Shown here: one piece after another, positions 13,617-34,563 of the stretch
Layout: the number at the start of each line of letters is the position of its first letter
Numbering within the stretch: position 1 is the stretch's first letter
DNA from: Magnetococcales bacterium
GTDB lineage: Bacteria; Pseudomonadota; Magnetococcia; Magnetococcales; JADFYX01
Assembly (NCBI GenBank): GCA_015232405.1
Contig: JADFZS010000012.1
Coordinates: 276 to 64,275 of the forward strand
DNA length: 64,000 bases
Direction: 5' to 3'
Made by a program: the position numbers and the translations under genes
Notes under the pieces: model-generated
What the model saw: the letters and a program-made list of their open reading frames with translations, nothing else
Told to the model about the DNA's origin: nothing
Databases searched by the model: none

Positions 13617-14219
13617 ATGAACGCTAAACGTACTCCCGATGAAACTCGAGACTCTCTTTTAGAAGCGGCTTTTGATGAGATGTTTGTCAACGGCTTCCAA
13701 GCAGCTAGTATTTCAAATATTCTGGCTAAAACTCACCTCACAAAAGGTGCGCTATATCATCATTTTAAAAACAAAAAAGCCTTAGGATACGCTGTTGTTG
13801 ATGAGTGGATACCACAAAATATCGACAACGCTTTTTTTCGTCCAGTTAGGGATGAAGGTGATTTTTTCAAGGGTTATGAGAGGGCATTCAATGAGTGTCC
13901 ATTAGATAAAAGAGAGATGCTGGTAAAATATGGCAGCCCTGTCTTTAAGTTAGCACAAGAAATGTCCCATCTAGATGACGGTTTTAAAGTACGTTTAGAA
14001 AAAATCATGAAATGGTGGCGAGATGGTATTGCTGAAACCATTAGGACAGCCCAGAGCAAAGGACAGATAAAAGCAGACGTGAATGCAGAAGAACAAGCTT
14101 TTGTTTTGCAAGCATTTTTACTAGGTGGAGTCAGTCTAACCATGGTGGCTCAATCACCTGAAATGTTGATGGGAGCAACAAAACTATTTCTTGAATATAT
14201 CGAAACTTTAAGGGCATAA
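13617..14219 (+). CDS. TetR/AcrR family transcriptional regulator
   Basis: 200 aa with an N-terminal HTH: RDSLLEAAFDEMFVNGFQAASISNILAKTHLTKGALYHHFKNKKAL. Confidence 0.9.
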   Translation: MNAKRTPDETRDSLLEAAFDEMFVNGFQAASISNILAKTHLTKGALYHHFKNKKALGYAVVDEWIPQNIDNAFFRPVRDEGDFFKGYERAFNECPLDKREMLVKYGSPVFKLAQEMSHLDDGFKVRLEKIMKWWRDGIAETIRTAQSKGQIKADVNAEEQAFVLQAFLLGGVSLTMVAQSPEMLMGATKLFLEYIETLRA

Positions 14220-14281
14220 GGCAGCCATTTGTTGGTTATGTCAGATCCTTTAAAAATACAATTAGCTAGGAGTTTAACAAA

Positions 14282-16573
14282 ATGAGAGAAAATTTCTTCC
14301 TTAACATCATGCGTTGGCGATGGCTGGTGTTAATACTGTTTATTGCTTTGGTAGGAGGTATTGCCAGTGGAGCAAAACTCCTGCGATTTGAGACCAGTTA
14401 CCAGATATTTTTCTCTGATGACAATCCTCAACTACTAGCCTTTGAACATCTGCAAGATACCTACACAAAAAATGATAACGTTCTATTTGTGTTGGCCCCT
14501 AAGGATGGCAAGATTTTTACTAAAACAATGTTAAAAGTAGTAAAAGATCTCACCAAAGCATCTTGGCAGATCCCCTACTCCATACGGGTTGATTCCATAA
14601 CCAATTTTCAGCATACCGAAGCAGATGGAGATGACCTGCTGGTACAAGACCTTGTGGAGAAAGTTGATAGTTTAACTGATTCTGACTTGGAGCGGATAAA
14701 ATCTATCGCTCTTAATGAGCCACTGTTACTCAACCGAATGATTCCACCAACAGCAGATGTAACTGGGGTAAATGTAACTATTCAGCTACCAGCAAAAGAT
14801 CCTGTTTCGGAAGTTCCAGAAGTTGCAGCTTATGTCGAAAAAATGGCTGCCGACCTCCGCCTTGCTCACCCAGATGTTGATGTCTATTTAACTGGCGTGA
14901 CCATGATGAACAACGCTTTTCCAACTGCGGCCCAAAAAGATATGGCCACATTGGTTCCTACTATGTTTCTAGTGGTCATCATCACCCTGGGGATTATGTT
15001 CCGCTCATTTTCTGCTACCTTTGCTACCGTTGTGATAATCATGATGACTGTGGCCACGACCATGGGGCTTACAGGCTGGCTGGGAATACCACTCACGGGA
15101 CCATCATCATCAGCTCCAACCATTATTTTAACAATGGCAGTTGCTGACTGTGTACATATTATCATCTCCTTTCTCTATCTACTTCGCCAAAATGGGGGTA
15201 CTGATAAACGAGCTGCAATAATGGAGAGCCTACGTATTAACCTGCACCCGGTATTTTTGACAACAGTAACAACAGCAATCGGCTTTTTGAGTATGAACTT
15301 TGGTGAAGTTCCCCCATTTAGAGATTTAGGTAACATGGTTGCAATGGGTGTTGGAACTGCTTTTATTCTCTCAATAACTGTACTACCTGCCCTGCTTATT
15401 ATACTACCGATAAAGGTAAAACAAGATACATCCCGTACCGGCAAGATGATGGATAAATTTGGTGAGTTTGTAGTACAAAAACGCAATATGCTTGCTTTTA
15501 GTATGGTTGGCATTGTTGCCATACTTGCAGCGTTTATCCCGAACAATGAACTAAACGATGAATTTGTTAAATATTTTAGCCGTGATATTCCTTTCCGTGT
15601 AGCTTCTGATTTTTCCAATGATAGACTCACAGGTATCTACAACATTGACTATTCGTTGGACTCAGGTGAAGAAAATGGTGTTTCATCCCCTGAATTTTTA
15701 CAACATGTGGAAGATTTCGCCAACTGGTATCGCAAACAGCCAGAAGTGGTACATGTAAATTCAATAACTGATATTTTCAAACGTCTCAATCGCACCATGC
15801 ATGGAGATGATCCTGCTTGGTATCAACTACCCCAAGCAAGGGATCTTGCTGCTCAGTATCTACTTTTATATGAGATGTCACTACCCTATGGGTTGGATCT
15901 TAACAATCAGATCAATCTTGACAAGTCGGCTACCAGATTTGTGGTTACCATGAAAAATATATCTACTAATCAGGTATTGGATATTGCTGATCGGGCCAGA
16001 AACTGGCAACAGGCAAACCTTCCACCCTCTATGCAAGTTGAAGGTTCAAGTCCAACTGTGATGTTTGCCCATATTGGCTATCGTAATATTCGCAGCATGT
16101 TGTTTGGTATGTCAGCTGCTTTGGTATTGATATCAATGATAATGATGATATCTCTACGGTCAGTAAAGATCGGCCTTATTAGCCTGATACCTAACCTTGT
16201 TCCCATGATAATGGCCTTTGGCTTGTGGGGTATGCTTGTGGGTGAGGTTGGATTGGCCCTCTCAATTGTGACAGGTATGACTCTTGGTATTGTTGTTGAC
16301 GATTCGGTCCACTTTTTAAGTAAATATCTACGTGCACGTCGTGAACGCGGAGCATCATCCCAAGATGCCGTACGCTATGCATTTTCAACTGTAGGTACAG
16401 CCCTCTGGGTTACATCTGCGGTGTTGGTCTGTGGCTTCTTTGTCCTGACATTTTCTGACTTTAAACTTAATTCTGGCATGGGGTTGTTGACTGCTATAAC
16501 CATATCCTTTGCTCTTATTGCTGACTTTCTACTTTTACCACCCCTGCTGATGAAATTGGAGAAAAACTCATGA
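14282..16573 (+). CDS. RND superfamily exporter, MMPL/COG1033 type
   Basis: 763 aa with two 6-TM bundles, each preceded by a large periplasmic loop, and duplicated motifs (AVADCVHII / IVVDDSVHFL). Confidence 0.85.
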   Translation: MRENFFLNIMRWRWLVLILFIALVGGIASGAKLLRFETSYQIFFSDDNPQLLAFEHLQDTYTKNDNVLFVLAPKDGKIFTKTMLKVVKDLTKASWQIPYSIRVDSITNFQHTEADGDDLLVQDLVEKVDSLTDSDLERIKSIALNEPLLLNRMIPPTADVTGVNVTIQLPAKDPVSEVPEVAAYVEKMAADLRLAHPDVDVYLTGVTMMNNAFPTAAQKDMATLVPTMFLVVIITLGIMFRSFSATFATVVIIMMTVATTMGLTGWLGIPLTGPSSSAPTIILTMAVADCVHIIISFLYLLRQNGGTDKRAAIMESLRINLHPVFLTTVTTAIGFLSMNFGEVPPFRDLGNMVAMGVGTAFILSITVLPALLIILPIKVKQDTSRTGKMMDKFGEFVVQKRNMLAFSMVGIVAILAAFIPNNELNDEFVKYFSRDIPFRVASDFSNDRLTGIYNIDYSLDSGEENGVSSPEFLQHVEDFANWYRKQPEVVHVNSITDIFKRLNRTMHGDDPAWYQLPQARDLAAQYLLLYEMSLPYGLDLNNQINLDKSATRFVVTMKNISTNQVLDIADRARNWQQANLPPSMQVEGSSPTVMFAHIGYRNIRSMLFGMSAALVLISMIMMISLRSVKIGLISLIPNLVPMIMAFGLWGMLVGEVGLALSIVTGMTLGIVVDDSVHFLSKYLRARRERGASSQDAVRYAFSTVGTALWVTSAVLVCGFFVLTFSDFKLNSGMGLLTAITISFALIADFLLLPPLLMKLEKNS

Positions 16574-17361
16574 AACCATATAAGCAAACAATAATTTTAG
16601 CTTTATCATTAATGCTTTTACCACTATCCGGTTTTGCCCAAACCCCAGCAGAAAAGGGTTTGGCAATTGCCAAGGAGATTGACAAACGTGATGAGGGTTT
16701 TGGTGATTCAACAGCAGAGTTGACCATGACACTTAAAAACAAAGCTGGCAGAGAGAGCTACCGCTATATTCGTTTTAAAACCCTTGAGGTTAAAGGAGAT
16801 GGTGATAAGAGCCTCTCAATATTTGACAAACCTAGAGATATCAAAGGTACGGCAATGTTAACCTTCTCTCACCCTATTGCACAGGATGACCAGTGGATGT
16901 TTTTACCTGCTTTAAAACGGGTAAAACGTATCTCCTCCCGCAACAAATCTGGACCTTTCATGGGTAGTGAGTTTGCTTTTGAAGATTTAGGCTCCCAAGA
17001 GGTAGCAAAATATCACTACAAATGGATGCTTGATGAAAAATACAACGGTCTAGATTGCTTTGTGTTGGAACGTCGCCCAGCTTATGAATATTCTGGCTAT
17101 ACCAGACAGGTTGTTTGGGTTGATAAAGAGGAGTACCGCATCCAACAAGTGGAATATTATGATCGTAAAAATAGTCTACTTAAAACCCAAACATTCGGTA
17201 ACTATAAACAGTATCTAGACAAATACTGGCGACCAGGGCATATGGATATGATCAACCATCAAACAGGAAAAAGCACAAAATTGCTCTGGAACAATTATAA
17301 ATTCCGTGTTGGTCTCAAAGAGTCTAACTTCAACCGCAACTCATTAAAAAGAGCAAGATGA
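16570..17361 (+). CDS. LolA-like outer-membrane lipoprotein-sorting protein
   Basis: 263 aa with a signal peptide. Its start overlaps the RND gene stop (ATGA). It contains the pattern ...QWMFLPALKRVKRISSRNKSGPFMGSEFAFEDL... Confidence 0.75.
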   Translation: MKPYKQTIILALSLMLLPLSGFAQTPAEKGLAIAKEIDKRDEGFGDSTAELTMTLKNKAGRESYRYIRFKTLEVKGDGDKSLSIFDKPRDIKGTAMLTFSHPIAQDDQWMFLPALKRVKRISSRNKSGPFMGSEFAFEDLGSQEVAKYHYKWMLDEKYNGLDCFVLERRPAYEYSGYTRQVVWVDKEEYRIQQVEYYDRKNSLLKTQTFGNYKQYLDKYWRPGHMDMINHQTGKSTKLLWNNYKFRVGLKESNFNRNSLKRAR

Positions 17362-18563
17362 ACATTAAATACATTTTACTTTTTGCAGCCATCGCTTTTG
17401 CTATAAGTAAACCGGGGAACCTGATAGCTTCTACTGGTGAGTTTACCGGCTATATAGCAACTGAAATGAGGTTGTTTCCTGAATCCCCAGCCTCTTCACA
17501 ACAGGGTGACGGCCAGGTATCACTTAGCATTCAACCGGAATATTTTAAAGATTGGGATGAGGGAAAGCAGAGCTTTACTTTTGTTCCATATATCAGGTTG
17601 GATAGTATGGACTCTCAACGAACCCATTGGGATATTAGGGAATTAACCTGGGTGAAAGTTGGTGAAAACTGGGAAGTTAGAGCAGGGTTGAGAAAACTGT
17701 TTTGGGGGGTTGCTGAGTCACAACACTTGGTGGATGTGATCAACCAGACAGATTTAGTTGATAGCTTGGACGGTGAGGAAAAGCTGGGACAACCCATGGT
17801 AAATGTCTCATTTATGGGTGATAACGGTACTCTTGACCTCTTCTTACTCCCCTACTTTAGAGAGAGAACTTTTCCAGGGGAAAAAGCTAGACTACGAACC
17901 GGATTATATATAGATACCGACCAAGCCCAGTATGAATCTGGAGCCGAAAAAGAGCATATAGATTGGGCGGTGCGCTGGTTTCAATCGTTGGGAGATTGGG
18001 ATGTAGGTCTTTCTCACTTTTCTGGTACAAGTCGTAGCCCCACCTTTAACATGGGGACTGACAGTGATGGAAACTCAGTACTTGTACCTTATTATGCTTT
18101 AATGGAACAGACCGGGATTGATCTACAAGCGACAAAGGGGGCTTGGTTGTGGAAGCTCGAAGCAATTACCCAACGTAGTCAGGGTGATCGCCACCAAGCC
18201 TTAACAGGTGGTTTTGAATACACATTTGTGGGAGTATTTGATTCAGCTGCAGACATGGGTTTAATATCAGAATATCTCTATGATGATCGTGGGGAATCTG
18301 CACCAACCCCTATGGAGAGTGATTTGATGGTTGGTATGCGGTTAGCCCTTAATGATGAAGCAAGTACAGATTTTCTTGTGGGAGCAAGCATTGATGTTAA
18401 CCAACAAAATTTTAATGTTAGTTTAGAAGGCTCTAGACGGATAAAAGAAGATTGGAAGCTCTCCATTGAAGGTCGAATTTTTATCGACCCTCCCAAAGAG
18501 GACCCTATATATTCCATGCGTCGTGATAGTTTTGTACAACTTGAATTAGCACGATATTTCTAG
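17358..18563 (+). CDS. putative outer-membrane beta-barrel protein (function unknown)
   Basis: 401 aa with an ATGA overlap with the upstream gene, a signal peptide, alternating-hydrophobic strands, and a C-terminal ...LELARYF typical of an OMP terminal aromatic residue. Confidence 0.6.
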   Translation: MNIKYILLFAAIAFAISKPGNLIASTGEFTGYIATEMRLFPESPASSQQGDGQVSLSIQPEYFKDWDEGKQSFTFVPYIRLDSMDSQRTHWDIRELTWVKVGENWEVRAGLRKLFWGVAESQHLVDVINQTDLVDSLDGEEKLGQPMVNVSFMGDNGTLDLFLLPYFRERTFPGEKARLRTGLYIDTDQAQYESGAEKEHIDWAVRWFQSLGDWDVGLSHFSGTSRSPTFNMGTDSDGNSVLVPYYALMEQTGIDLQATKGAWLWKLEAITQRSQGDRHQALTGGFEYTFVGVFDSAADMGLISEYLYDDRGESAPTPMESDLMVGMRLALNDEASTDFLVGASIDVNQQNFNVSLEGSRRIKEDWKLSIEGRIFIDPPKEDPIYSMRRDSFVQLELARYF

Positions 18564-19454: not shown

Positions 19455-20588
19455 TTACCTACGTTTAGGATCTATTTTGGATGCTGTATAAAGCTTATCA
19501 ATACCACCTTTTGCAATAACCCTGTTTACAACAGGCAACAGATCAACATCACCCATTGCTACAACATAGGCATCGTTATTTGTTAACAGCCTTTTTTTAT
19601 CAACATATACCATTCTACTATCGGGCCATCGGCTGGCTATTAGCTCATCTGTAATAAAATAGACATTCTCTCTACTTGGGTCGGCCATTAGTTCATGAAC
19701 ATAAGCTGGAATTTCTGTACTGGTGGTGGTAGTTACTATATTACTTTTAGGAAAATTATTAATAATATATTCCACACTGTTAGAGCCATGAACGGCTACT
19801 ATGGTGTTTTTGGCAGAGTTAAGATTATCTCTTGTTCGTGACAAATAACTCTCTTTACCAGATACAAAAGTCCCAAGAGCCAAGCCAGTTGTATAATATG
19901 GTTCAGACAAATATGCTATTTCGGCTCTCTCTTTTGTATGAGAAATCAAGCTTATGGTTAAATCAGCTACACCATAACTCAAAGCTGTAAAGCGTGATTC
20001 AAGGCTTTTTAAACGGGTGAATACTGCTTTTTTACCCATCTCTTTGGCAATTAAGCTACCAAAATCTATTGCTGCTCCATGCCACATTCTTGTTTTTGGG
20101 TTAATTTGGCTGATAAACCCCTGATTATCACGGACCCCAATACGTAGAATTTTATCATCTTGAAACAGGTGGGATATTTGATCATCCCCCAAGTCGGTAT
20201 TTTGCAAATTGGTGTGGTTTTTTAGTTGAGTTGATAAATCCTGACAGCGACCATCAGCTCTGTATTCCTCTTTTATCAGATTTTCCGAATCTAAAGATAT
20301 TGCCTCAACACGCCACACATTTTTATTTGATTTTGCTCGGGACCTTTTCTCAATAAGTTTTGCCAGTGTATTGCGATATAGTGATTTTAATTCGCTGTTT
20401 TTACTGCTTTTTTCATAGAACCAAAAAGGGGGACAGACCTTCATACGCACCAAAAGCTCATCCCCAGCTTCCTGCTGGGAAGTCACCTTGGTTTTGGCTT
20501 TGGTTAATGAAGGAGATATTGAAAAAATGTATACAAATAGAGTAGCAACAAGAAAAATTACTACATGACTTAGATATTGATTGCTCAT
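19455..20588 (-). CDS. periplasmic substrate-binding protein, SBP_bac_3-like, with an N-terminal anchor and a ~130-aa extension
   Basis: 377 aa with an N-terminal hydrophobic segment and ILRIGVRDNQGF...WHGAAIDFGSLIAKEMGKKAVF...GVADLTISLISHTKERAE...YYTTGLAL. It lies 23 nt downstream of the MBL/CNB gene. Confidence 0.7.
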   Translation of the reverse strand: MSNQYLSHVVIFLVATLFVYIFSISPSLTKAKTKVTSQQEAGDELLVRMKVCPPFWFYEKSSKNSELKSLYRNTLAKLIEKRSRAKSNKNVWRVEAISLDSENLIKEEYRADGRCQDLSTQLKNHTNLQNTDLGDDQISHLFQDDKILRIGVRDNQGFISQINPKTRMWHGAAIDFGSLIAKEMGKKAVFTRLKSLESRFTALSYGVADLTISLISHTKERAEIAYLSEPYYTTGLALGTFVSGKESYLSRTRDNLNSAKNTIVAVHGSNSVEYIINNFPKSNIVTTTTSTEIPAYVHELMADPSRENVYFITDELIASRWPDSRMVYVDKKRLLTNNDAYVVAMGDVDLLPVVNRVIAKGGIDKLYTASKIDPKRR

Positions 20589-20611: not shown

Positions 20612-23242
20612 TTAGAAAATCTCTATCGCATTCAATATTCCCCCACAGCGGTGGTCATCAGTTAGAAAATGTTTAACCAACCTACTTTGAAAATAGCGGG
20701 AGAACTGTTTGGCTACTGTTGCTGGCTGAGTGTCGATTAAAATTAACATCTCCTGGAATGTATCTATTATTACCTTATGTTTCTTTTTATGGTTGTCAGC
20801 TTCAGGGGTAGAGGCTTTTGTATAGAGCTTCTCTTCAGCTTTGAAACATGACTCCATCTGTTTAATAAATTTTTTCAGGCTTGTTTTCTGTTTGGTTATC
20901 TTTGCCGACTCTTCCACAGCAACTGTTAGATACTCGCTGCCTAGTTCAAAAAGATTGTGATGTCGATCATCAATGCTCTTTACCCCTACCCGATAGGCAT
21001 CACGCCATAAAAGTGTTGTCGATGTGTTTACATCCGGGTTTAATATGGAACGGCGACGTCTCTCAGATCTTTCAAGTAGTTTCCATCGCACAATAGGAAT
21101 ATCACGAACCAACTTTGAAGGAATTGTATAAATTTCCACATCTCCATTGGTTTTAACGTCATAAGTTTGTGGTCTTTCAAAAAGAGCCGACTCCTCACCA
21201 AAATAATCACCAGGCCCTAATGATTCAATGATATCATTATCCACCATACATGAGACCTGTCCCGATTTAATCAGGTTTAAGGAGTGTTTACCTTTCAGTT
21301 TTATTAATTTGTTACCTTTAAAGTTCTTAACTTCTATAGACTGGGCAATTTGACTCTGCTTTGGATAGGAGATAGCTTCACCAAATAACTCTGTATTTTG
21401 CAAAAATTCACGAAGTTGATGAATAGCTTTAATCTGGTTGTAGTAGTTGTTTTTCTTCACAAAACCAAGATAGAGACGACCGGGCAGGCGTATAGCCCTT
21501 ACAAAACTAGAAGCCCTATATGTCTGTTGAGATATGCTACGGTATAAACAGGATAGTTCTCCAAGTAGACTACCAGCAGAAAGAACGCCGGAAACCCCTA
21601 AACCACCGTGTAAAGTCTCCACTGTACCAGTTAGAACAAGGTAAATATCGTCACTTATCTCCTGCTCTTTATATATAATACTGCCAGGATTAAATGTAAT
21701 TACCTCATTATTTAATAGGCTTCTGATCTGATTTTGTGGTGCATCAGGAAAATATGAGCACATATAATCAATGGCCTCTCTCATGGCCGACTCGGTATAA
21801 TCAGGTATCAATATGTCAGTAGTACCAAAGGAGGCACTTGATCCTATTTTCCGTTGCTCACCAGTAAGTGGCGTAGAAGTGTGTGAAAGAATTATTTTTT
21901 TTGATTTATCACCTCTGAAATCTGTGGCAAACCCATGAATCATACCACCGCCAATATCAATTTTTTTAAGATTCGCTGGCAGTTGGTATTTCTCTAGAAC
22001 CTGCTCATAAAACTCCTTTGTCACCCCTTGTTTATCATCATCTTTACTTATCATGCCTTCTAGAACACTCAAGGAGACTATATCGGCATAGTGGGCATAA
22101 GAGTGGTAGCCATCCTCTGCCAAAGTACGAAAAACAAATATATTGGTCTCAACAGGGTGCGGTGAATAGAGAGGTTTAATTTCTAAACCCTCAAAATCAT
22201 TCCATTCATCAGCTTCCAAATCGTGTGTTTCAAAATAGTGATAGAAATCTTCCTCTTCAATTGAAAGAAGTACCGCAAGTTTTTTGGCGACAGAAGCTCG
22301 AACTAGAGGAGTGGAAAAATATTTAATCCTATGACCTGCCCTGATAAGGGCGGTGATACCACAAAAATGGTCATCATGGGCATGGGTATGAAAGATACCT
22401 TTAATCTCACTTATGCCAATTCCCAGTGATTCCAAGCTGTAGAGAATATTGGGGCCAGCATCAATAAGATATAACTGTCCCTGATACATAAGAATACTGG
22501 ACATACAGGGACGGTTGATATCCCAACCATCACCTTCACCTGAGTGGATAACCCCAAAGTACTCTCTTTTAAATTGATATTGGCCAAGGGGGTATGGGGG
22601 TGTGTAACTTTCACCAGCAGCAAGATTTAAATCAACAGATACAGTCTCATCCTTATAACTGATTTCAAAAATATTCAGTTGAACCCTACGAATTTCCACC
22701 CCTTCACAAATTTCAATGGTTGTATTCTCAAGAGGAATGGAATCCAGCAAGCTATCTGAAGGGCGGATACTACCAAAAGCAAATTTTAATTTAAGCCGCA
22801 TCATCTCATCGGCCTGCTCTTCAGATATACCAGTCTCAAGTATCTCCTCTTTGGAGATCAAGCCGTAGTTACCACGATAGATATAACCCATCTGTGCTTG
22901 CACCTGATCTGGTGCACCAATTAAACGGGGTTTTACCCCGGTATTATTGGGATGGTTGGGTATGATCATACCTTGACGGTAGAGCATTTGCAGCACCGGA
23001 AACTCAGCCAAATTGGAAAAGTGACCATTTTGTACTAGAACATCAGACAATAATATGGTGTTGGGGCCAGTCTCAAATGTTGCACCGTCCTGCTCTGTGT
23101 TGACTATTAAACCCCTTTTCATCAAATGTTTAACAGAATCTGCCGGACAGCCACAGAGCATATAAAGATCAACTTCAGGTACTGCGATCCAGTACATACC
23201 ATTTGTAATGTTAATTTTTGTTATTCTTTTGATTTGTTTCAT
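20612..23242 (-). CDS. multidomain protein: N-terminal unknown domain, MBL-fold hydrolase, 2x cNMP-binding, hemerythrin-like; candidate cNMP-regulated phosphodiesterase
   Basis: HTHAHDDH (HxHxDH). Two CNB domains (GSLLGELSCL...; GDYFGEESALFERPQTYDV). The C-terminal LLWRDAYRVGVKSIDDRHHNLFEL...CFKAEE...HKKKH...VKHFLTDDH is hemerythrin-like. I chose the ATG at 23242, 8 nt after GGGAGGA, over the track start at 23281. Confidence 0.82.
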   Translation of the reverse strand: MKQIKRITKINITNGMYWIAVPEVDLYMLCGCPADSVKHLMKRGLIVNTEQDGATFETGPNTILLSDVLVQNGHFSNLAEFPVLQMLYRQGMIIPNHPNNTGVKPRLIGAPDQVQAQMGYIYRGNYGLISKEEILETGISEEQADEMMRLKLKFAFGSIRPSDSLLDSIPLENTTIEICEGVEIRRVQLNIFEISYKDETVSVDLNLAAGESYTPPYPLGQYQFKREYFGVIHSGEGDGWDINRPCMSSILMYQGQLYLIDAGPNILYSLESLGIGISEIKGIFHTHAHDDHFCGITALIRAGHRIKYFSTPLVRASVAKKLAVLLSIEEEDFYHYFETHDLEADEWNDFEGLEIKPLYSPHPVETNIFVFRTLAEDGYHSYAHYADIVSLSVLEGMISKDDDKQGVTKEFYEQVLEKYQLPANLKKIDIGGGMIHGFATDFRGDKSKKIILSHTSTPLTGEQRKIGSSASFGTTDILIPDYTESAMREAIDYMCSYFPDAPQNQIRSLLNNEVITFNPGSIIYKEQEISDDIYLVLTGTVETLHGGLGVSGVLSAGSLLGELSCLYRSISQQTYRASSFVRAIRLPGRLYLGFVKKNNYYNQIKAIHQLREFLQNTELFGEAISYPKQSQIAQSIEVKNFKGNKLIKLKGKHSLNLIKSGQVSCMVDNDIIESLGPGDYFGEESALFERPQTYDVKTNGDVEIYTIPSKLVRDIPIVRWKLLERSERRRRSILNPDVNTSTTLLWRDAYRVGVKSIDDRHHNLFELGSEYLTVAVEESAKITKQKTSLKKFIKQMESCFKAEEKLYTKASTPEADNHKKKHKVIIDTFQEMLILIDTQPATVAKQFSRYFQSRLVKHFLTDDHRCGGILNAIEIF

Positions 23243-23594
23243 TTTAATCGTCCTCCCACTCTTCCCTCGGACAAACTCCACCTATTTTACAAGGCCCTTA
23301 AGCATAAAAATGATGTAACTTACTGTAACCAGACAAATTACATCCATCAACATCTATTAGACCAGTATACACAATTAATAATCAATTAGAAATTTTTCCT
23401 GATTTTTTATATATAGATGAAGCAAATTTATCATTTAGAATAAAAAAATAAAAATTCGACAATAATCTTTACATTTCCCTGTTACCAAGATGGAAAACAA
23501 GATATGCTAAAGATAACATGGGAATGGAGCATCTATGATAAAGATCATTATTGTAAAGTAACACTCTTTTTTTTAAGTCCAACGTGACAATATT

Positions 23595-24893
23595 ATGGAA
23601 CCAAGATCTGAAGAAGAGTCTCAACTAGCTCAGGCTAACTTTGAACTGCGCCACCTCCGGGAGACTGTCCAGGCGCAACAGGAAGCCATGGCTGACCTAT
23701 CCCACAAAAGTGGGCGAGAAATTCAAAAAGTTATCAGCAGCCAAGCAGGTGAGATGCGTCAGTATAAAGATACAATTGCATCCTTACGTAAAGAGTTAGA
23801 AGAGTTACAGTTTGAAAAAGGAAAAAGTGTACAAATAGCAATTGCTGAAGGTAATCGTGAATCAACCAACCTGCAATCCACAATCTCGGCCCTGCGAGAT
23901 GAGATGGAGAATATCAACTTTGATAAGCAGAGTGAAGTACAAACAGCAAAAAGCTATGGCACTTTGGAGATCAAACAGCTTAAAGAGACTGTGGCTGCCT
24001 TGCGTGATGAGATGGAAAATGTCCGTCACGAAAAACATACTGAGATTCAATCAGCTGTGCAACAGGGTAAGATGCAAGCATTGCAACTAGAAAATACCAT
24101 TGCAGCATTAAGAGTAGAACTTGACGAACTAGCCCATAGGATGCGCGCTCAGGTTCAGGAAGCATTGGCAAGTGGTCACCAAGAAATTTTACAATTAAAA
24201 GATACCGTAACAGCCCTTAGAGACAAAGTTGAAGAGGTGCAGTTTGAAAAACGCCAAGAAGTACAAAACACCCTGATAAAAGGCCATCGAGAGGCAACCC
24301 AACTACAGGAGACTATCTCTTCACTGCGGGATGTGTTGGATGACCAAAAACATGAACAACGCAAAGAGGTTCAAGCCACTTTGGTACAAGGACACCAAGA
24401 GGCAGTACAGCTACAGGCTACCATATCTTCTTTAAGAGTTAATATGGATGAGCTGCAATATTCAAAACAGCGTGAGGTTCAAGAGGCCGTTTCAATCGGT
24501 CACCGGGAAGCGCAGCACCTTCAAAGCACAATCACCGCCATTCGGGACGGAATGGATAATATGAGCTATGAAAAAGGCAAGGAGGTACAGTCGGCAAAAC
24601 TGTTTGGTCATACCGAAATAAATCAACTAAAAGAGACCACTTCAGCACTGCGTGACCAACTCGACGAACTGAACTACCAAAAGAGTCGTGCTGTCCAAGC
24701 TACACAAAAAGATGCAAGTTTAGAGATAGATCAGCTTCACAATACTGTATCTTCTCTCCGTGATGAGATGAACAACCTACAGACATCATACGAAAAAGAG
24801 ATAGAGTCCATGAAACAGGTCGCTCAGGGGGAGCGTCGGCAATTACAAGAGATGATAAGCGTCCTACGAGATAAATTGGAGCAGAGAGTATGA
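23595..24893 (+). CDS. 36-residue tandem-repeat alpha-helical protein (function unknown)
   Basis: 432 aa, made almost entirely of units such as VQxxxxxGHxExxQLxxTIxxLRDxMxxxxxEKxxE. The stop overlaps the cyclase start (ATGA). Confidence 0.8.
   Translation: MEPRSEEESQLAQANFELRHLRETVQAQQEAMADLSHKSGREIQKVISSQAGEMRQYKDTIASLRKELEELQFEKGKSVQIAIAEGNRESTNLQSTISALRDEMENINFDKQSEVQTAKSYGTLEIKQLKETVAALRDEMENVRHEKHTEIQSAVQQGKMQALQLENTIAALRVELDELAHRMRAQVQEALASGHQEILQLKDTVTALRDKVEEVQFEKRQEVQNTLIKGHREATQLQETISSLRDVLDDQKHEQRKEVQATLVQGHQEAVQLQATISSLRVNMDELQYSKQREVQEAVSIGHREAQHLQSTITAIRDGMDNMSYEKGKEVQSAKLFGHTEINQLKETTSALRDQLDELNYQKSRAVQATQKDASLEIDQLHNTVSSLRDEMNNLQTSYEKEIESMKQVAQGERRQLQEMISVLRDKLEQRV
23721..24890 (+). 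repeat. in-frame 108-bp (36-aa) tandem repeats: 10 full units plus a partial unit
   Basis: The units start at IQKV, VQIA, VQTA, IQSA, VQEA, VQNT, VQAT, VQEA, VQSA, VQAT and IESM. Each is exactly 36 residues with no indels. Confidence 0.85.
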
Positions 24894-27181
24894 CAACACC
24901 AACTAATAAAACCACTGAGACCAGAAGCACAACTTCACAGTATAAAAAGCAACTACACCAAATGGAGATGCTCCTTGATATCTCCAAACAGGTTGCTTCT
25001 CACGATACCCTTGATGAGATGTTGCGCACTATTGTGGAACTTATAACAGATAAAACTGATTCTGAACGTGGTTCTATATTTCTCAACGACAATCTAACCA
25101 ACGAACTCTATTCTCGTTATGCCCAAGGCAATATCCAGAGAGAAATCAGGATTCTCAATGATCACGGTATTGCTGGTCATGTTTTTCAAACTGGTGAAGG
25201 GGCCATCATACTAGATGCCTATAACGATGAAAGATTTGACTCTGCTACCGACCAAGAGACAGGGTTTACGACAAAAAGCATAATCTGTGCTCCCATACGA
25301 ACAGCAAAAGGCCAAATTATTGGTGTTGTACAGGCTCTAAACAAAAAAGAGGGTGATTTTACCGAGAGTGACCTCAAACTTGTTGAGACAATGACCACCC
25401 AAACAGCGGTCATTCTAGAAAGCACGCAAAACTTGGAGCGGATGGAGATTACCAGAAAGCAAGAACTGCTATTTTTGGATATGGTTTCTGACATCACCTC
25501 TGAAATTGAAATTGACTCCCTGCTACAAAAAGTTATCAGCGAATCAACAAAAATGCTCAGTGCCGATAGAGGTACTCTTTTTATAAACGATGAAAAGAGC
25601 AACGAGCTATTTTCTCGTGTTGCCATGGGTAACTCAATTGGCGAGATTCGTCTTCCAAATACCGCCGGTATTGCTGGTGCTGTTTTTACATCTGGAGAGA
25701 CAATCAACATTCCCTATGCCTATGCTGATCTCCGTTTCAACCCATCATTTGATAAGCAAACTGGTTATTTCACTCGCTCTATTCTCTGTGTGCCAGTTGT
25801 AAATAAAGAGGGTAAAACTATCGGTGTTACCCAGATGCTCAATAAAAAAGGTGGTACTTTCACACCAGAAGATGAAGCAAGACTAAAAGCCTTTACCGCT
25901 CAGGTATCCATAGCCTTAGAGAATGCCAAGCTCTTTGAAGACATACAAAACATGAAAAACTACAATGAAAGTATGCTTGAAAGTATGTCAAATGGTGTTG
26001 TAACGATAAATGATGAAGGTATAATAGCTACGTGCAATGCTGCCGGTTTGCGCTTACTAAAAGTTCACCATACAGAGATTCTTAAAAAAGAGGCAAAGGA
26101 GTTTTTTGTTGGTGATAACCTCTGGATAATGGAGAAAGTGGAACAGATATCAGAAAACCCAGAGGGATTCAACATGATGGATGTTGATGTTATGGCTGGT
26201 GGTGAAAAAATGTCCACCAACATGACCATACTGCCATTGGTAAGTGGCGAAGAAAAAGCCCTTGGTACAATGATAATGATTGAGGATATTAGTGGCGAAA
26301 AACGTATGAAGTCCACGATGTCCCGCTACATGGACCCTGGCCTTGCAGATCAGCTAATGGATGGTGGAGAGGATCTATTAGGTGGTAAAAGTGTGGAAGC
26401 TACTGTTGTATTTACAGATATCCGTAGTTTTACCACTTTAACTGAAGAGCTCGGTCCTCAAGGAACAGTTCTTCTGCTGAATGAATATTTTACTATCATG
26501 GTGGAATGTATATCCAAAGAGGGTGGCATGTTGGATAAATTTATCGGTGATGCCATGATGGCTGCCTTTGGCCTGCCACTAGCCCACGATGATGATGAAG
26601 ACCGCGCGGTACGTGCAGCAATCGATATGATTGTTAAGCTAAATGAGTATAATGCTGCCAGAGCTAAAGAAGGTAAAATGCCAGTATTAATGGGCATTGG
26701 TTTAAATACTGATACCGTAGTATCTGGTAACATTGGCTCACCAAAACGTATGGATTACACTATGATTGGCGACGGCGTTAATCTGGCCGCTCGTCTGGAG
26801 AGTGCCTGTAAACAGTATTCGGCCCAGATATTGGTCAGTGAAAGAACAGTTAGCAAACTCAAAGGAACCTATCGTATCAGACCAGTAGATTTAGTTGTTG
26901 TTAAGGGTAAAACCAAGCCTGTTGCAATTTTTGAGGTTCTCGACTACCACACTGAGGAGACCTTCCCCAACCTTATGGAGGCTGTCAACCATTTCAAGAG
27001 CGGCCTAGATCTCTATCGTAAAGGTAACTTTACTAAGTCAATTCAGGCATTTAATGAGGCAATTAAACTGAACCCCAATGATAAACTTGCGGATATGTAT
27101 ATTGGTCGCTGCAACGATCTTATTGCGGACCCTCCACCAGCAGATGAGTGGAACGGTGTTTGGGTAATGAAATCTAAATAA
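24890..27181 (+). CDS. GAF-GAF-PAS class III adenylate/guanylate cyclase with a C-terminal TPR-like tail (CyaB1-like architecture)
   Basis: 763 aa with two GAF domains (GIAGHVFQTGE..., GIAGAVFTSGE...), a PAS-like segment, and a cyclase core: VVFTDIRSFTTLTE...DKFIGDAMMAAFG...GNIGSPKRMDYTMIGDGVNLAARLES. Confidence 0.9.
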   Translation: MTTPTNKTTETRSTTSQYKKQLHQMEMLLDISKQVASHDTLDEMLRTIVELITDKTDSERGSIFLNDNLTNELYSRYAQGNIQREIRILNDHGIAGHVFQTGEGAIILDAYNDERFDSATDQETGFTTKSIICAPIRTAKGQIIGVVQALNKKEGDFTESDLKLVETMTTQTAVILESTQNLERMEITRKQELLFLDMVSDITSEIEIDSLLQKVISESTKMLSADRGTLFINDEKSNELFSRVAMGNSIGEIRLPNTAGIAGAVFTSGETINIPYAYADLRFNPSFDKQTGYFTRSILCVPVVNKEGKTIGVTQMLNKKGGTFTPEDEARLKAFTAQVSIALENAKLFEDIQNMKNYNESMLESMSNGVVTINDEGIIATCNAAGLRLLKVHHTEILKKEAKEFFVGDNLWIMEKVEQISENPEGFNMMDVDVMAGGEKMSTNMTILPLVSGEEKALGTMIMIEDISGEKRMKSTMSRYMDPGLADQLMDGGEDLLGGKSVEATVVFTDIRSFTTLTEELGPQGTVLLLNEYFTIMVECISKEGGMLDKFIGDAMMAAFGLPLAHDDDEDRAVRAAIDMIVKLNEYNAARAKEGKMPVLMGIGLNTDTVVSGNIGSPKRMDYTMIGDGVNLAARLESACKQYSAQILVSERTVSKLKGTYRIRPVDLVVVKGKTKPVAIFEVLDYHTEETFPNLMEAVNHFKSGLDLYRKGNFTKSIQAFNEAIKLNPNDKLADMYIGRCNDLIADPPPADEWNGVWVMKSK

Positions 27182-29280: not shown

Positions 29281-29907
29281 TTAATCCAACCCCCCAACAT
29301 GCCAGAAAAGCAGTCGTGGAATTGGGGTGTCCCCAACATAATCAATACGTACCCGGGAAAGGGCAGCAAATGGTATTAACAATCGGGATAGATTTTCAAG
29401 TGGTATACCCAACAACATCCCGATAGTTACCCGAATTACCCCACTATGGGCAACTAACAGAATATGTTCACCTTCTGAATTATTGAGCATTTTCTGCCAT
29501 GCATTGGCAATTCGGTTGTGCACGTCTATTATTGGCTCCCCTTGTGGTGGAGTATGGTCCCTTGGGTTGCGCCAAAAATTTTGCACATGTTCGCTATACA
29601 GCTCATCATTAAGAAGTTCTTGTCTGGTTTTGCCCTCCCAAAGTCCAAAATTCATCTCACGGAAATCCTGTTCTATCTCAACAGGTATAGATAAGGTATC
29701 CCCAGTTTTTACGGCAAATTGTGAACAACGTTTTAAGGGTGATGTAACAATCTTTTGCCAGGGGGCTTGATACTCGTCAATGGTTTTTTGCATCTGTTGC
29801 CAACCAAGATCAGATAGAGGATCATCCAATGTTCCTCTATATTTTGAGCCACCTTGGGGTTCTCCATGACGAAGAAAATCTATGGTTGTCGTTGCGCGTT
29901 CGTTCAT
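29281..29907 (-). CDS. histidine phosphatase family protein (phosphoglycerate mutase/alpha-ribazole phosphatase-like)
   Basis: 208 aa with IDFLRHGEPQGG, PLSDLGWQQM and LLVAHSGVIR. The start overlaps the upstream stop by 1 nt (TAATG). Confidence 0.82.
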   Translation of the reverse strand: MNERATTTIDFLRHGEPQGGSKYRGTLDDPLSDLGWQQMQKTIDEYQAPWQKIVTSPLKRCSQFAVKTGDTLSIPVEIEQDFREMNFGLWEGKTRQELLNDELYSEHVQNFWRNPRDHTPPQGEPIIDVHNRIANAWQKMLNNSEGEHILLVAHSGVIRVTIGMLLGIPLENLSRLLIPFAALSRVRIDYVGDTPIPRLLFWHVGGLD

Positions 29908-31562
29908 TATTTTATGTATGCTGTGACAAATGAGTCTCGTTTGAACTTGTTGCTAAACTCTTTTTGAGCCTTGCGAGCCAGATTTTTATTTTTATAGTTA
30001 CCAAATCGGACCAAGTAAAGAGTCTTGCCACTTTTTTTATCTACACGTTGTTGAATAAACAGCTCTCCACCCTTTTTATTAAGACCATCTCTTACCAAGA
30101 CTGCCTCTTTTTCATTATGTAATGCAGCTATTTGTATGGTCCAGCGAGGTTGATTGTTTTCTATAGGAAATAGAGTATCAATTTGATTCACAATTTGTGG
30201 TGATGACTCCTCATCATGAGCCATGGGGTGTGGTACACCCTCTTCCCTGTCTAGAATAAGATCAAACCCATCACCCTGTGGTGTTAGCCTACCTAGTACT
30301 TGCAGAAGTTCAAACATAGCTAGGTTAACAGCAAACTGGCTTTTGACCTGCTCTATCTGGGCGGAAAAGAGTTCATTTTGAGCATCAAGTAGATCCAAAG
30401 ATGTTCTAGAGCCAACCTGATACTCCTGGTCTACACCATCCTTTGCCTCTTGTGCAGCAGTTACTGCAGTTTTTAAAGCAAGATCAGTAGCTTTAGCACT
30501 ATCAATTTTTGCTAAAACCTGTTTCAACTCTCGCTCAGCCTGTATACGTAATAGATCTAGATCGGCCTGTTTATTATCCCGGTTGGATTGTGCCTGTTTA
30601 ACTTGTGCGGTGGTTAAACCACCTGAATATAGCGGTAGTGATGCGGCAACTGTGACAGTAAAAGCATCTGTAGAATTGTCGGTTAGTGATGTAGCAGGAT
30701 TCCATGTTCTAGAACCACTTGCTTTTAGAGATACTGTTGGATAGTGACCAGCTTTTGTTACCTCTACCAGCTTCTTCTCCCCTTGTAATCTATATTGAGC
30801 AGATAGTATATCAGGGCGAGTTTTAACAAGTGGTATTAGCTTATCAAGATCTAAAGTTGGTAGATCAGATAGCACAATGGGAATTTGCAATCCTGTTGGA
30901 AAAGGAATTCCAGCAATTTCCTGGAATTTAGCAGCAAGAATTAAGCTATCCCCATTCTGACGTATCCAGGCAGCTTTTGCTATGGCAACCCTGGAAATAG
31001 CTTGGCTAACATCTGTTTTTGTAACCTCTCCTACAGAAAACCTTGCCTTGGTCGCCTCCAAATGGTGTTCGGTTACTTCTAGATTATTTTTTGCTAACCT
31101 TGCTACCTCTTTAGACTCAATAAGGGCAGTTGCTGCCTGTATCAGAGAAAAATAGACCTGCTGTCTCACACCTTCTAAATCAAGTTCCAATGATCTTACT
31201 TGAGGGTCAACCCGATCCATTTCTCGAATAGCAGAAAGGTTATAGAGTGTCTGGCTTGCAGAAAGAGTTAAAGAGTGTGGGTCATAGTTACTACTACCAT
31301 CCCGCCAGTCACTATTTGTATATGATGACTGCCAATCCAATGAGACAGTTGGAAGAACAACTGCTTTAGCTTGGGCATATAGGGTCATGGCAGCTGCAAG
31401 TCGAGCTTCAGACTGCTTTATAAGGTTGTTGGAAGCCAAAGCTTCTTGTACTGATATGTAGAACAGTGCTAACGGTTTTTCGTTAGTTGCATGCGTCACA
31501 CCTGAATACAGAACAAAAAGGCCAGCTAAACCCCATATTTTAAGCATTTTTTTAATGGACAT
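29907..31562 (-). CDS. TolC-family outer-membrane channel fused to a C-terminal SPOR domain
   Basis: It has two TolC repeat halves (SLDWQSSYTNS..., LKASGSRTWNP...). The C-terminal ~80 aa, RWTIQIAALHNEKEAVLVRDGL...LYLVRFGNYKNKNLARKAQKEF, has the SPOR pattern. The ATG at 31562 gives the signal peptide MSIKKMLKIWGLAGLFVLYSGVTHA. Confidence 0.82.
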   Translation of the reverse strand: MSIKKMLKIWGLAGLFVLYSGVTHATNEKPLALFYISVQEALASNNLIKQSEARLAAAMTLYAQAKAVVLPTVSLDWQSSYTNSDWRDGSSNYDPHSLTLSASQTLYNLSAIREMDRVDPQVRSLELDLEGVRQQVYFSLIQAATALIESKEVARLAKNNLEVTEHHLEATKARFSVGEVTKTDVSQAISRVAIAKAAWIRQNGDSLILAAKFQEIAGIPFPTGLQIPIVLSDLPTLDLDKLIPLVKTRPDILSAQYRLQGEKKLVEVTKAGHYPTVSLKASGSRTWNPATSLTDNSTDAFTVTVAASLPLYSGGLTTAQVKQAQSNRDNKQADLDLLRIQAERELKQVLAKIDSAKATDLALKTAVTAAQEAKDGVDQEYQVGSRTSLDLLDAQNELFSAQIEQVKSQFAVNLAMFELLQVLGRLTPQGDGFDLILDREEGVPHPMAHDEESSPQIVNQIDTLFPIENNQPRWTIQIAALHNEKEAVLVRDGLNKKGGELFIQQRVDKKSGKTLYLVRFGNYKNKNLARKAQKEFSNKFKRDSFVTAYIK

Positions 31563-31873
31563 TTTGATAAACCTGTGTAATTCAATAATTTTTATTAACC
31601 ATGCAATCATATCACATCATTTCGACAAAAGAAATCTATCGTAAGATAATGAGACAAACCTTGCGAAGTAAAAATAAAAAATAGTACAACAATCTTGCTA
31701 AAGAAGGTTTATGTGAATAACAAGTCAGTTAGTTCACATTTATGATTACTTAGGAAGATATTCCACACTTATTGATAAGCGACCCTTTCAATAAGTTCCT
31801 CATATTATGCATATTATAAATTTCAGATAATTTTTTAAAAAATTAATTCACTATTTATGGTTAATGAATAACA

Positions 31874-32845
31874 ATGTCTACAAGCCAATCTTTGCACCAA
31901 CTTTTTAATAATGTAAGCAGTAAAATTATAGGGCAGGAGATACTTGTAAAGAGGTTGTTGATTGCTCTGTTAGCAGATGGACATCTTCTGGTTGAGGGAG
32001 CACCTGGCTTGGCAAAAACTAGGGCTATCAAGGTGTTAAGCAGTTGCATTGATGGTGATTTTCAACGTATTCAATTCACCCCTGACCTACTACCTGCGGA
32101 CTTAACTGGTACAGATATTTTCCGCCCACAAGAGGGAACATTCAAATTTCAACCTGGCCCACTGTTTCACAATCTTATTTTGGCAGATGAAATAAATCGT
32201 GCTCCTGCCAAGGTACAATCAGCCCTTTTAGAAGCTATGGGTGAGCGGCAGATAACTGTCGGCTCCACAACATACCATCTTCCTGACATGTTTCTAGTGA
32301 TGGCAACCCAAAACCCTATTGAACAGGAGGGAACACATCCCTTACCAGAGGCCCAATTAGATCGATTTTTAATGTTAATTCGTATCGACTATCCCAACTA
32401 TGAAAGTGAAAGACAAATATTGCAACTAGTTAGAAAAGAGGTTCTAACAAATAGAGATGATTATACCCCTGCCGAAGAAGAGGCAATTGACAAAGAGACC
32501 ATATTTGCTGCACGACAAGAAGTTTTAGACCTCCATATGAGTGAAAACCTTGAGACCTATCTAATACAGATAATAATGGCTACCAGAGAGCCAAATGTAC
32601 TTGGTGGAAAATACAGTAATATAATCCAATATGGAGCAAGTCCTAGAGCAACAATAGCTCTGGATCGCTGTGCCAGAGCAAATGCTTGGCTAGAAGGGAG
32701 AGATTTTGTAACCCCGGAAGATATTCAATCTTTAGCATATGATGTACTAAGACACAGAATTTTATTAACTTTTGAAGCTGAGGCAGAAGGCATAACAACA
32801 GATCATTTGATCAGCAAACTTTTAGCAGCAGTTCCAGTACCGTGA
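31874..32845 (+). CDS. MoxR-family AAA+ ATPase
   Basis: 323 aa with LLVEGAPGLAKT (Walker A), LILADEINRAPAKVQSALLEAM and VMATQNPIEQEGTHPLPEAQLDRF. Confidence 0.92.
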   Translation: MSTSQSLHQLFNNVSSKIIGQEILVKRLLIALLADGHLLVEGAPGLAKTRAIKVLSSCIDGDFQRIQFTPDLLPADLTGTDIFRPQEGTFKFQPGPLFHNLILADEINRAPAKVQSALLEAMGERQITVGSTTYHLPDMFLVMATQNPIEQEGTHPLPEAQLDRFLMLIRIDYPNYESERQILQLVRKEVLTNRDDYTPAEEEAIDKETIFAARQEVLDLHMSENLETYLIQIIMATREPNVLGGKYSNIIQYGASPRATIALDRCARANAWLEGRDFVTPEDIQSLAYDVLRHRILLTFEAEAEGITTDHLISKLLAAVPVP

Positions 32846-33810
32846 GTATTAGCAGTCGATTTTTAAGTGGAAAAAGGTCAAGCACCACTCCCTTTAAAGA
32901 TAGTGCAGTATCCGTACATGCCAAGGAATTAATTGCTCTACATCAAGAGGCTAAAGGGGTTAAGTTAAAGCCAACACGAATACGCTCTACAATGAGCGGG
33001 CAATATATTTCACCATACATAGGTAGAGGTATGACCTTTGCTGAAAGTCGCCCATATCAAAGTGGTGATGATGCAAGACATATGGATTGGCGAGTGACAG
33101 CACGTACTGGCAAAGCATATACCAAACTATTCCAAGAAGAGCGGGAACGTTCAATATTTATCTTTGTAGATTTTCGTTCTCCCATGTTTTTTGCTACCAA
33201 AGGTCGCTTTAAATCGGTACAGGCAGCAAGAACTGCTGCATGGGTTGCTTGGGCAGCAAGGAATAATAACGACCGTATTGGTGGGTTGATATTCTCAGAG
33301 CAGCAGCATTGGGAGTTGCGCCCAAAAACTGGAGACAAATCAGTATTACGGCTAATCCATACCCTAAGCAGTGCCGCGAGTTTCAGTTTTAATGGTGGAA
33401 AAGATAGAACCACTAATGGTGAAATTCCTTTAACCCAATCTCTGGTACGTCTAAGACGTGTGGTAAAACCGGGCAGCCAATTATTTCTCTTGAGCGATTT
33501 TCGCAATCTTGACCACACCGGTGAGGCCCACTTAAAACAACTCGCCAAACACAATGAGATTGTAATAGTTTTTTACTATGATCCTTTGGAGAGATCACTC
33601 CCCAAACCAGGTCTATATCCAGTAGATTTTGGTAGGGGGATACAGACTCTCAACACCAGAAACACCAAAAGTAGAGACCATTACCAGTCGCAATTTAATC
33701 ATCGGCAAGAACATCTAATGGAGCTATGCCGAAAGCTGAACGGGTATTTTTTAACTATCTCTACAACAGATGATGCTATAACTACTCTTAAAACAGCTTT
33801 TCAGAGTTAG
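32842..33810 (+). CDS. DUF58 (VWA-like) protein, MoxR partner
   Basis: GTGA overlap with the MoxR stop. It contains GRGMTFAESRPYQSGDDARHMDWRVTARTGKAYTKLFQEERE, the DUF58 signature. Confidence 0.82.
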   Translation: MSISSRFLSGKRSSTTPFKDSAVSVHAKELIALHQEAKGVKLKPTRIRSTMSGQYISPYIGRGMTFAESRPYQSGDDARHMDWRVTARTGKAYTKLFQEERERSIFIFVDFRSPMFFATKGRFKSVQAARTAAWVAWAARNNNDRIGGLIFSEQQHWELRPKTGDKSVLRLIHTLSSAASFSFNGGKDRTTNGEIPLTQSLVRLRRVVKPGSQLFLLSDFRNLDHTGEAHLKQLAKHNEIVIVFYYDPLERSLPKPGLYPVDFGRGIQTLNTRNTKSRDHYQSQFNHRQEHLMELCRKLNGYFLTISTTDDAITTLKTAFQS

Positions 33811-33820
33811 CCAGATAGTC

Positions 33821-34330: not shown

Positions 34331-34563
34331 CAGAACACTCAACCTACAAAACCAACATTGTTAATAACTTGTTTAAAATTTTAAACTAAACACAAACATG
34401 AATCCATTCATAATAATCCTAAATCAAAACCATCCAAAGCTATAAAAGAGTGATAGCACATAAAAATTTAGAATTCATCGGTGACCTTGTCAAATTTAAT
34501 CAATCTTTGCTAACCTTCATAAAATAAAATGTTATCTGCCTCTTAAATATGGGACCAGTAAAT

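Follow-up and report, generated by a model that had tools for sequence, protein, structure and literature searches.

The locus described here raises the question of what a single bacterial polypeptide does when it joins a metallo-beta-lactamase (MBL) fold to two cyclic nucleotide-binding (CNB) domains and a C-terminal hemerythrin. The gene lies in a 64,000-nucleotide (nt) stretch of DNA from a Magnetococcales bacterium (GenBank assembly GCA_015232405.1, contig JADFZS010000012.1, positions 276 to 64,275 of the forward strand), hereafter called the window. An original prediction for this DNA took the product to be a phosphodiesterase (PDE) gated by cyclic nucleoside monophosphates (cNMP). Our analysis indicates that the gene very probably encodes a sensor-regulated MBL hydrolase of the signalling type. 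The narrower reading, a sensor-regulated second-messenger PDE that acts on cNMP, is drawn by analogy with characterised enzymes and in our judgement stands at an even chance of being correct.

The whole coding sequence (20612..23242, minus strand; 876 amino acids [aa] plus TAA) is defined by the open reading frame (ORF) list, its translation, and homologues that match it end to end. It is read from 23242 to 20615, with the TAA stop at 20612-20614. The prediction of one 876-aa gene at this place, and its general anatomy, hold; the strand had not been stated and is the minus strand, and the plus-strand frame of the same interval is rich in stops. Homologues with 92-48% identity align over the full length, and therefore this is a real gene and no chance ORF. 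A Shine-Dalgarno-like GGAGG (23252..23256, minus strand, from sequence reading) is found 9 nt 5' of the ATG. The same ORF offers an alternative upstream start, a GTG at 23281; since GGAGG precedes the ATG at 23242 and the N-termini of the homologues begin there, the evidence favours the ATG as the probable start. A scan for promoters and terminators gave counts equal to the shuffle background. The product is acidic (isoelectric point [pI] 5.9) and has no hydrophobic segment, and thus it is cytoplasmic. A full-length AlphaFold2 model built from 72 homologues is confident throughout, with a mean pLDDT (predicted local distance difference test) of 88.7 and a pTM (predicted template modelling score) of 0.87. 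The domain order is an N-terminal domain (N-domain), MBL, CNB-A, CNB-B, and hemerythrin, and all coordinates of these domains given below are on the minus strand.

The MBL catalytic domain (aa 228-482; 21797..22561) scores above threshold with both Lactamase_B (PF00753, 32.8 bits against a cutoff of 22.7) and Lactamase_B_2 (PF12706, 28.4 against 27), and the two models are matched by 16/16 family members. The sequence HTHAHDDH at aa 285-292 (22367..22390; codons checked) contains the HxHxDH zinc motif and is invariant, which bears out the MBL core predicted from this motif. The candidate metal ligands D261, H287, H289, D291, H292, H362, D387, H436, and H454 show no variation among 72 close homologues and are kept in 72-73 of the 73 representatives of clusters at 50% identity. 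Because these candidates do not vary, the MBL enzyme is judged almost certainly active. A profile of the MBL domain was then compared with the sequences in PDB (60 matches listed of 70 up to E 10). The best solved-structure matches are Apyc1 7u2s (E 8.8e-8), 7t28, and 7u2r; after Apyc1 come ELAC1, an arylsulfatase, PNGM-1, and RNase Z. As a class II PDE of the MBL fold, Apyc1 hydrolyses cyclic mononucleotides, and like RNase Z it acts as a homodimer (PMC9117128). With Apyc1 as the top solved match and the MBL-CNB-CNB order shared with GbpA/B (PMC11988041), an MBL-fold phosphodiesterase is still the best reading, as had been proposed. The domain appears to fall in the Apyc1/RNase Z (Lactamase_B_2) branch, nearest a cNMP PDE and outside every curated PDE family. 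In these profile searches it showed no robust clustering with a non-PDE clade. Judged from its sequence, the protein does not qualify as a canonical class II cAMP PDE of the yeast PDE1 or V. fischeri CpdP type; yeast PDE1 is not among the PDB profile matches listed (60 of 70, up to E 10).

The family to which this protein belongs is large. Full-length relatives of ~870 aa number more than 100 in a protein search; nearly all have the identical domain set, and those outside the close clade are 48-54% identical to the window protein. The existing names of these relatives are only 'bacteriohemerythrin', 'hemerythrin', or 'cyclic nucleotide-binding domain-containing protein'. In a scan of one genome per species, relatives turned up in genomes of at least 469 species from many phyla. 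The hemerythrin-bearing form is the dominant one among the 120 best matches, so the view that adding hemerythrin to MBL plus CNB is unusual does not hold for genomes; only with respect to characterised proteins is the fusion unusual. None of the domains is new in kind, and the combination, which is frequent in genomes, has already been annotated automatically. The closest relatives are encoded by Magnetococcales metagenome-assembled genomes (MAGs), at loci L003 (93% identity) and L001 (90%). Prominent in the 80 best loci are magnetotactic bacteria, Gallionella, sulfate reducers, anammox bacteria, Nitrospinota, and Campylobacterota; other carriers are Kuenenia, Desulfobacterales, Desulfovibrionales, Telmatospirillum, and Phaeospirillum. 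A restriction of the family to magnetotactic bacteria, as the named top matches suggested, was rejected given the relatives in Gallionella, Campylobacterota, Kuenenia, Nitrospinota, Desulfovibrionales, Telmatospirillum, and others. Two family paralogues (L045 and L065) are present in the single genome of Magnetospirillum sulfuroxidans J10. A literature search found no paper on this architecture and no experimental study of the family.

Within the family the catalytic part is fixed and the sensor domains are exchanged. The mean identity of the window protein to distant homologues is 62% in the N-domain and 64% in the MBL domain, then 44% in CNB-A, 41% in CNB-B, and 25% in the hemerythrin. The N-domain plus MBL core occurs alone (~480 aa, some of these possibly fragments), with two CNB domains (~735 aa), and with two CNB domains and hemerythrin (~870 aa). 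Other core variants carry an N-terminal REC, GAF, CHASE2, or SBP_bac_3 domain, and one (P0219) carries a third, canonical CNB domain. A fixed enzymatic core combined with exchangeable sensor domains is the signature of a signalling output enzyme.

We therefore propose the following scheme. The protein would be a soluble cytoplasmic signalling enzyme whose core consists of the N-domain and a binuclear-metal MBL hydrolase. By analogy with Apyc1 and GbpA/B, the substrate hydrolysed by this core would be a second messenger of the cyclic-nucleotide type, with a 3',5'-cNMP the most likely. Two modules probably set its activity: the CNB-fold tandem, which may transmit or integrate an allosteric signal or bind a non-classical ligand, and the C-terminal hemerythrin four-helix bundle. 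We infer iron binding by the hemerythrin and, likewise, the direction of the regulation. Several observations weigh against a cNMP PDE of this kind. The Apyc1 Pfam model (PF23023) is matched by 16/16 members below its 50-bit gathering threshold (20.4-22.8 bits for the window protein, up to ~28 for relatives), so that Apyc1 is the closest solved relative and not a family member, and the Apyc1 similarity spans the N-terminal half of the MBL domain only (profile positions 8-135 of 255). Over motifs I-II the scores of RNase Z models are similar to that of Apyc1, and the Pfam PDEase_II model gave no match up to E 1. The link to cyclic nucleotides through the CNB domains looks weak, both being without the phosphate-binding Arg, and one of the seven hemerythrin ligands is absent here and replaced by Ser in a close relative. 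From the genomic side, clustering of the neighbours of the 80 best loci found no gene family in more than 5 loci, and a class III cyclase adjoins the family gene in only 3 of the 80 loci and in the window, a frequency that we estimate roughly to be near the background rate. Lastly, the literature search found no enzymology for any member.

The C-terminal domain is a hemerythrin, as had been predicted. It covers aa 744-872 (20627..21013) as a four-helix bundle, identified by TIGR02481, PF01814, and the AlphaFold2 model, in which four long helices extend over 755-872. The score with TIGR02481 is 66.9 bits (threshold 51.75), and the domain scanned alone gives 30.9 with PF01814 (25.3); the bacteriohemerythrin model NF033749 gives 57.1 bits, below its cutoff of 84. 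The ligand positions are H761, C799 (normally His), E803, H818, H822, H858, and D863. Thus 6/7 of the full di-iron set H, HxxxE, HxxxH, HxxxxD (5 His, 1 Glu, and 1 Asp) is present here, and the set is complete outside the clade. Among 75 sequences His is found at position 761 in 74, at 799 in 64, at 818 in 67, at 822 in 73, and at 858 in 73, while E803 is kept in 75/75 and D863 in 72/75.

The exception is position 799, the second His ligand of the HFxxEE box, where the window protein has Cys (codon TGT, 20846-20848, minus strand) and the box reads CFKAEE, beginning at residue 799. TGT differs from the His codons CAT/CAC in two bases and is therefore not a single-base error. In the Magnetococcales clade (at least 70% overall identity) Cys799 is found in 9/10 members and Ser in the 90% identical L001; Trp854 is changed to Arg in the entire Cys clade and co-varies with the change at 799. 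One MAG (ER1bin7, PEAM01) has both a Cys-type gene (L048) and a canonical His-type gene (L051), and hence the Cys form is a diverged paralogue. The His-to-Cys change that had been singled out as a possible modifier of metal or gas chemistry is thus real and confined to one Magnetococcales paralogue clade. We take the His at position 799 to ligate Fe2, the O2-binding iron, by hemerythrin convention, and Cys799 probably alters or weakens the O2-binding iron site. A specific Cys-iron chemistry is possible and not secure, because a relative with 90% identity has Ser there. A related alternative is that the hemerythrin of this clade has degenerated and serves, in place of a di-iron O2 sensor, as a structural or dimerisation module or as the site of a different metal. 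The loss of His799 (to Cys in nine clade members and Ser in one), the change of the pocket Trp854 to Arg throughout the clade, the lowest conservation of any part of the protein, and the His-type paralogue L051 retained in the same MAG as L048 are all in keeping with it. Against this, six of the seven ligands are kept, Cys persists down to 70% overall identity, and the model thresholds are still passed, so that we consider degeneration possible and, on balance, unlikely.

At the other end of the protein, the N-domain (aa 1-227; 22562..23242) is delimited by its conservation and its co-occurrence with MBL, with no hidden Markov model match: the first ~227 aa match no model in Pfam and NCBIfam scans. 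The region of ~260 aa that had been left unassigned is accordingly real in this respect, and we can add that its conservation equals that of the MBL domain and that it is weakly MBL-like. As many as 40% of its columns are at least 90% conserved, and its invariant residues include D35, K38, S66, D67, Q71, N77, E80, H97, R123, and K151. A profile search of 1.8 billion representative proteins with the N-domain found 302 clusters, and among clusters that hold the whole N-domain an MBL match follows directly in 8/8 checked. On these sequence grounds the N-domain and the MBL domain make up a joint catalytic core, and the N-domain has not been described before. Residues 1-245 modelled separately gave a pLDDT of 74, and Foldseek with this model gave weak matches (E 9e-4 to 0.1, template modelling [TM] score 0.35-0.40); MBL-fold proteins (arylsulfatase, Apyc1, PqqB, INTS9, RNase J/Z, and CPSF73) account for nearly all of the top 40. 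By eye, LYMLCGCPADSVKHLMKRG of the N-domain resembles LYLIDAGPNILYSLESLG of the catalytic domain, and ILLSDVLVQNGHF occupies the place that corresponds to the catalytic 'IFHTHAHDDHF'. An internal duplication of the MBL domain was considered and set aside, hhalign giving a probability of 0.35%; the weak Foldseek support remains. By analogy with long-form tRNase Z, it could be hypothesised that the N-domain is a degenerate MBL partner in an intramolecular pseudo-dimer.

Both CNB domains are present as predicted: cNMP_binding (PF00027) matches two stretches with 71.3 bits (cutoff 27.5), and in Foldseek the tandem has the PKA-R and PKG tandem CNBs as its top matches (E 1e-15). CNB-A (aa 483-610; 21413..21796; by Pfam, Foldseek, and phmmer) keeps G561-E562 and T574, and CNB-B (aa 611-735; 21038..21412; by Pfam and alignment) keeps G682-E683. 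In PKA the Arg of the phosphate-binding cassette is ten residues past the cassette Gly. At this position CNB-A has Ser571 (codon 21530-21532, minus strand) and CNB-B has Gln692 (21167-21169, minus strand), and in CNB-B the Thr/Ser three residues past the Arg position is also gone. The alignment at Ser571 and Gln692 is gap-free, and HMMER pairs both residues with the cassette Arg of PKG (phmmer match to Plasmodium PKG, E 9e-15). Position 571 is S, A, or C in 69 of the 72 homologues, and at position 692 the residues S, Q, G, P, A, and D predominate; Arg is found in 0/72 at either. The cassette-like segments described earlier as intact are therefore not so: both keep Gly-Glu and lack the Arg.

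The absence of the Arg bears on what the enzyme would cleave. The same scaffold might act on another phosphodiester, such as a cyclic di- or oligonucleotide, a 2',3'-cyclic nucleotide, or an RNA end, with the CNB tandem binding something other than cNMP, for example a nucleoside. Trypanosome PKA-R binds nucleosides and is a precedent for a non-cNMP ligand; this nucleoside-binding protein is among the Foldseek matches of the CNB tandem. Also in favour are the family-wide loss of the Arg from both CNB domains, the appearance of ELAC1 and RNase Z/J in the sequence and fold searches, RNase Z models as the top NCBIfam matches of the MBL domain, and the conserved extra N-domain, which could make the substrate site larger or more specific. 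The best RNase Z score (TIGR02651), however, is 42.5 bits against a cutoff of 292.95, over profile positions 15-74 of 302 only, that is motifs I-II with the shared His motif. The N-domain (pI 5.1) and the MBL domain (pI 5.2) are acidic, unlike RNA-binding exosites, which speaks against an RNA or other nucleic-acid substrate and for a small molecule, and the best sequence match remains Apyc1, a PDE of cyclic mononucleotides. We regard another phosphodiester as an unlikely though credible substrate.

A classical cAMP/cGMP-gated PDE, in which both CNB cassettes are functional and activate catalysis as in GbpA/B, fares less well and is a decidedly improbable alternative. The identical domain order of GbpA/B (PMC11988041), the Gly-Glu of both cassettes, the conserved Thr574 of CNB-A, and a cassette spacing equal to that of PKA (textbook numbering) would fit this alternative, and P0126, which retains the Arg, could be a hint of an ancestral cNMP site. 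These points are opposed by Ser571 and Gln692 themselves and by a regular-expression search for the canonical cassette that found it in 0/72 close homologues; among the 73 cluster representatives it is found at the CNB-A/CNB-B positions in one only (P0126, CNB-A). The cNMP gating of the original prediction is thus in question: since the phosphate-binding Arg is absent across the family, classical cAMP/cGMP gating appears doubtful. The CNB tandem may be an allosteric transducer or a binder of another ligand. The third CNB domain of P0219 (1167 aa) has a fully canonical cassette, GEVGILEHKPRSAT, and the protein also has a C-terminal extension of ~300 aa. A genuine cNMP sensor seems to have been added to a core whose own CNB pair is without the Arg, as though the intrinsic pair were unfit for the job, which also speaks against classical gating. 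Non-PDE MBL chemistry (sulfatase, lactonase, thiolesterase, or PqqB-like oxygenase) in a regulated metabolic enzyme is very improbable indeed, because the arylsulfatase 8gyg and PqqB do appear among the sequence and fold matches but are weaker than Apyc1 and confined to the His-motif region, fusions to REC, GAF, CHASE2, CNB, and hemerythrin are typical of signalling enzymes, and there is no metabolic operon context.

Returning to the sensor-regulated PDE, its possible meaning lies in where the family is found. Many of the carrier groups have been reported from oxygen or redox gradients, and the distribution of the family in such gradient dwellers makes it a candidate link between O2/redox sensing and the turnover of nucleotide second messengers. 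A bolder version, which we think rather unlikely as a whole, would be a widespread class of signalling enzyme with a pseudo-MBL/MBL pair, a CNB tandem repurposed for a ligand other than cAMP/cGMP or as a pure transducer, and a Cys-ligated hemerythrin iron with altered gas, redox, or iron sensing. If this were true, the turnover of second messengers in magnetotactic bacteria and other gradient dwellers would be coupled through the enzyme to O2 or iron status. The locus raises the questions of what a CNB fold without the Arg senses, what part the N-domain takes in the MBL active site, and what effect a Cys has at the O2-binding iron.

The genomic neighbourhood was examined in the same 80 loci. 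A conserved operon or partner gene was rejected, with no neighbour in more than 5/80 loci and the upstream cyclase absent from L001 and L003. Downstream of the enzyme gene, a gene for an SBP_bac_3-like protein of 377 aa with an N-terminal hydrophobic anchor (19455..20588, minus strand; Pfam SBP_bac_3) begins 24 nt past the enzyme stop. It is probably co-transcribed with the enzyme gene; its link to the enzyme is weak, and it is adjacent in 4 close Magnetococcales loci only. In P0136 an SBP_bac_3 domain is fused to the N-domain plus MBL core. A Rosetta-stone link based on this fusion was not accepted, since the same Pfam family is fused in P0136 but direct similarity to the downstream protein reaches E 0.007 only. 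On the other side lies a divergent block (23595-27181, plus strand) with a 432-aa ORF without a confident Pfam match, followed with a 4-nt overlap by a gene for a 763-aa GAF-GAF-PAS class III adenylate/guanylate cyclase with C-terminal TPR. L001 and L003 have no cyclase block, and a TPR-GT41 or His_Phos_1 gene adjoins the enzyme gene there instead; the block is therefore a recent insertion or deletion. A defence role, for which the Pycsar context of Apyc1 would be the model, was also rejected: PADLOC gave weak matches only, inside the CNB domains, and no membership in a defence system. Foldseek with the full-length model against PDB was swamped by CNB matches, and a viral library was uninformative.

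The rest of the window has 39% G+C and includes ordinary chromosomal genes (hemC, tsaD, gpsA, gyrB-like, and uvrB). Some of its genes are of interest in their own right. At 34549-36543 and 36671-38707 (plus strand) lie the genes of two paralogous B12-binding radical SAM proteins (664 and 678 aa) in tandem. A string of MoxR AAA+ ATPase, DUF58, and DUF4381 genes with overlapping or adjacent starts (31874-34330, plus strand) is kept in L001 and L003 and partly in L048. Another string (13617-18563, plus strand) encodes a TetR regulator, an MMPL/RND-type transporter, a LolA-like protein, and a 401-aa protein without a Pfam match, and a second LolA-like gene is found at 5675-6433 (plus strand). The gene at 29907-31610 (minus strand) encodes an outer-membrane efflux protein (OEP) with a peptidoglycan-binding SPOR domain fused at its C-terminus.

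Among known systems, Apyc1 and bacterial class II MBL PDEs such as B. subtilis YhfI share the MBL fold and HxHxDH with the window protein. Apyc1 differs in being a stand-alone homodimer of ~250 aa that is often phage-encoded, whereas the protein described here has 876 aa, four further domains, and no defence context. A possible analogy for the core is ELAC2, a long-form tRNase Z that combines a pseudo-MBL and an active MBL in one chain. Here too the N-domain precedes the active MBL domain and its fold matches are almost all MBL proteins. As points of difference, hhalign detects no sequence similarity between the N-domain and the MBL domain (probability 0.35%), the Foldseek scores of the N-domain are marginal (TM up to 0.40), and this domain is acidic, with no basic RNA-binding surface suggested.

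For the arrangement of catalytic and regulatory domains, the nearest parallel is with GbpA and GbpB of Dictyostelium (PdeD and PdeE, 'class IIb'), where two CNB domains likewise come after an MBL domain in a single cytosolic chain (PMC11988041). GbpA/B are cNMP-activated PDEs (PMC11988041), with cGMP or cAMP acting on the CNB domains, while both cassettes here are without the Arg. GbpA/B as described carry no hemerythrin. For the hemerythrin the parallel is with signalling proteins such as V. cholerae Bhr-DGC, Ferrovum Bhr-HD-GYP, and the DcrH chemoreceptor. A 2022 review counted four characterised hemerythrin sensors (DcrH, Bhr-DGC, Bhr-HD-GYP, and a P1B-5 ATPase), one of them a PDE, and the activity of Bhr-DGC and that of Bhr-HD-GYP are expected to follow the diferrous or diferric state (PMC9388753). 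Both of these enzymes have an N-terminal hemerythrin with full ligands and a GGDEF or HD-GYP output that acts on c-di-GMP; in the window protein the hemerythrin is C-terminal, the output is MBL, and Cys stands in for one His ligand. With an MBL-type hydrolase controlled by hemerythrin, the hemerythrin sensors would gain a new class of output.

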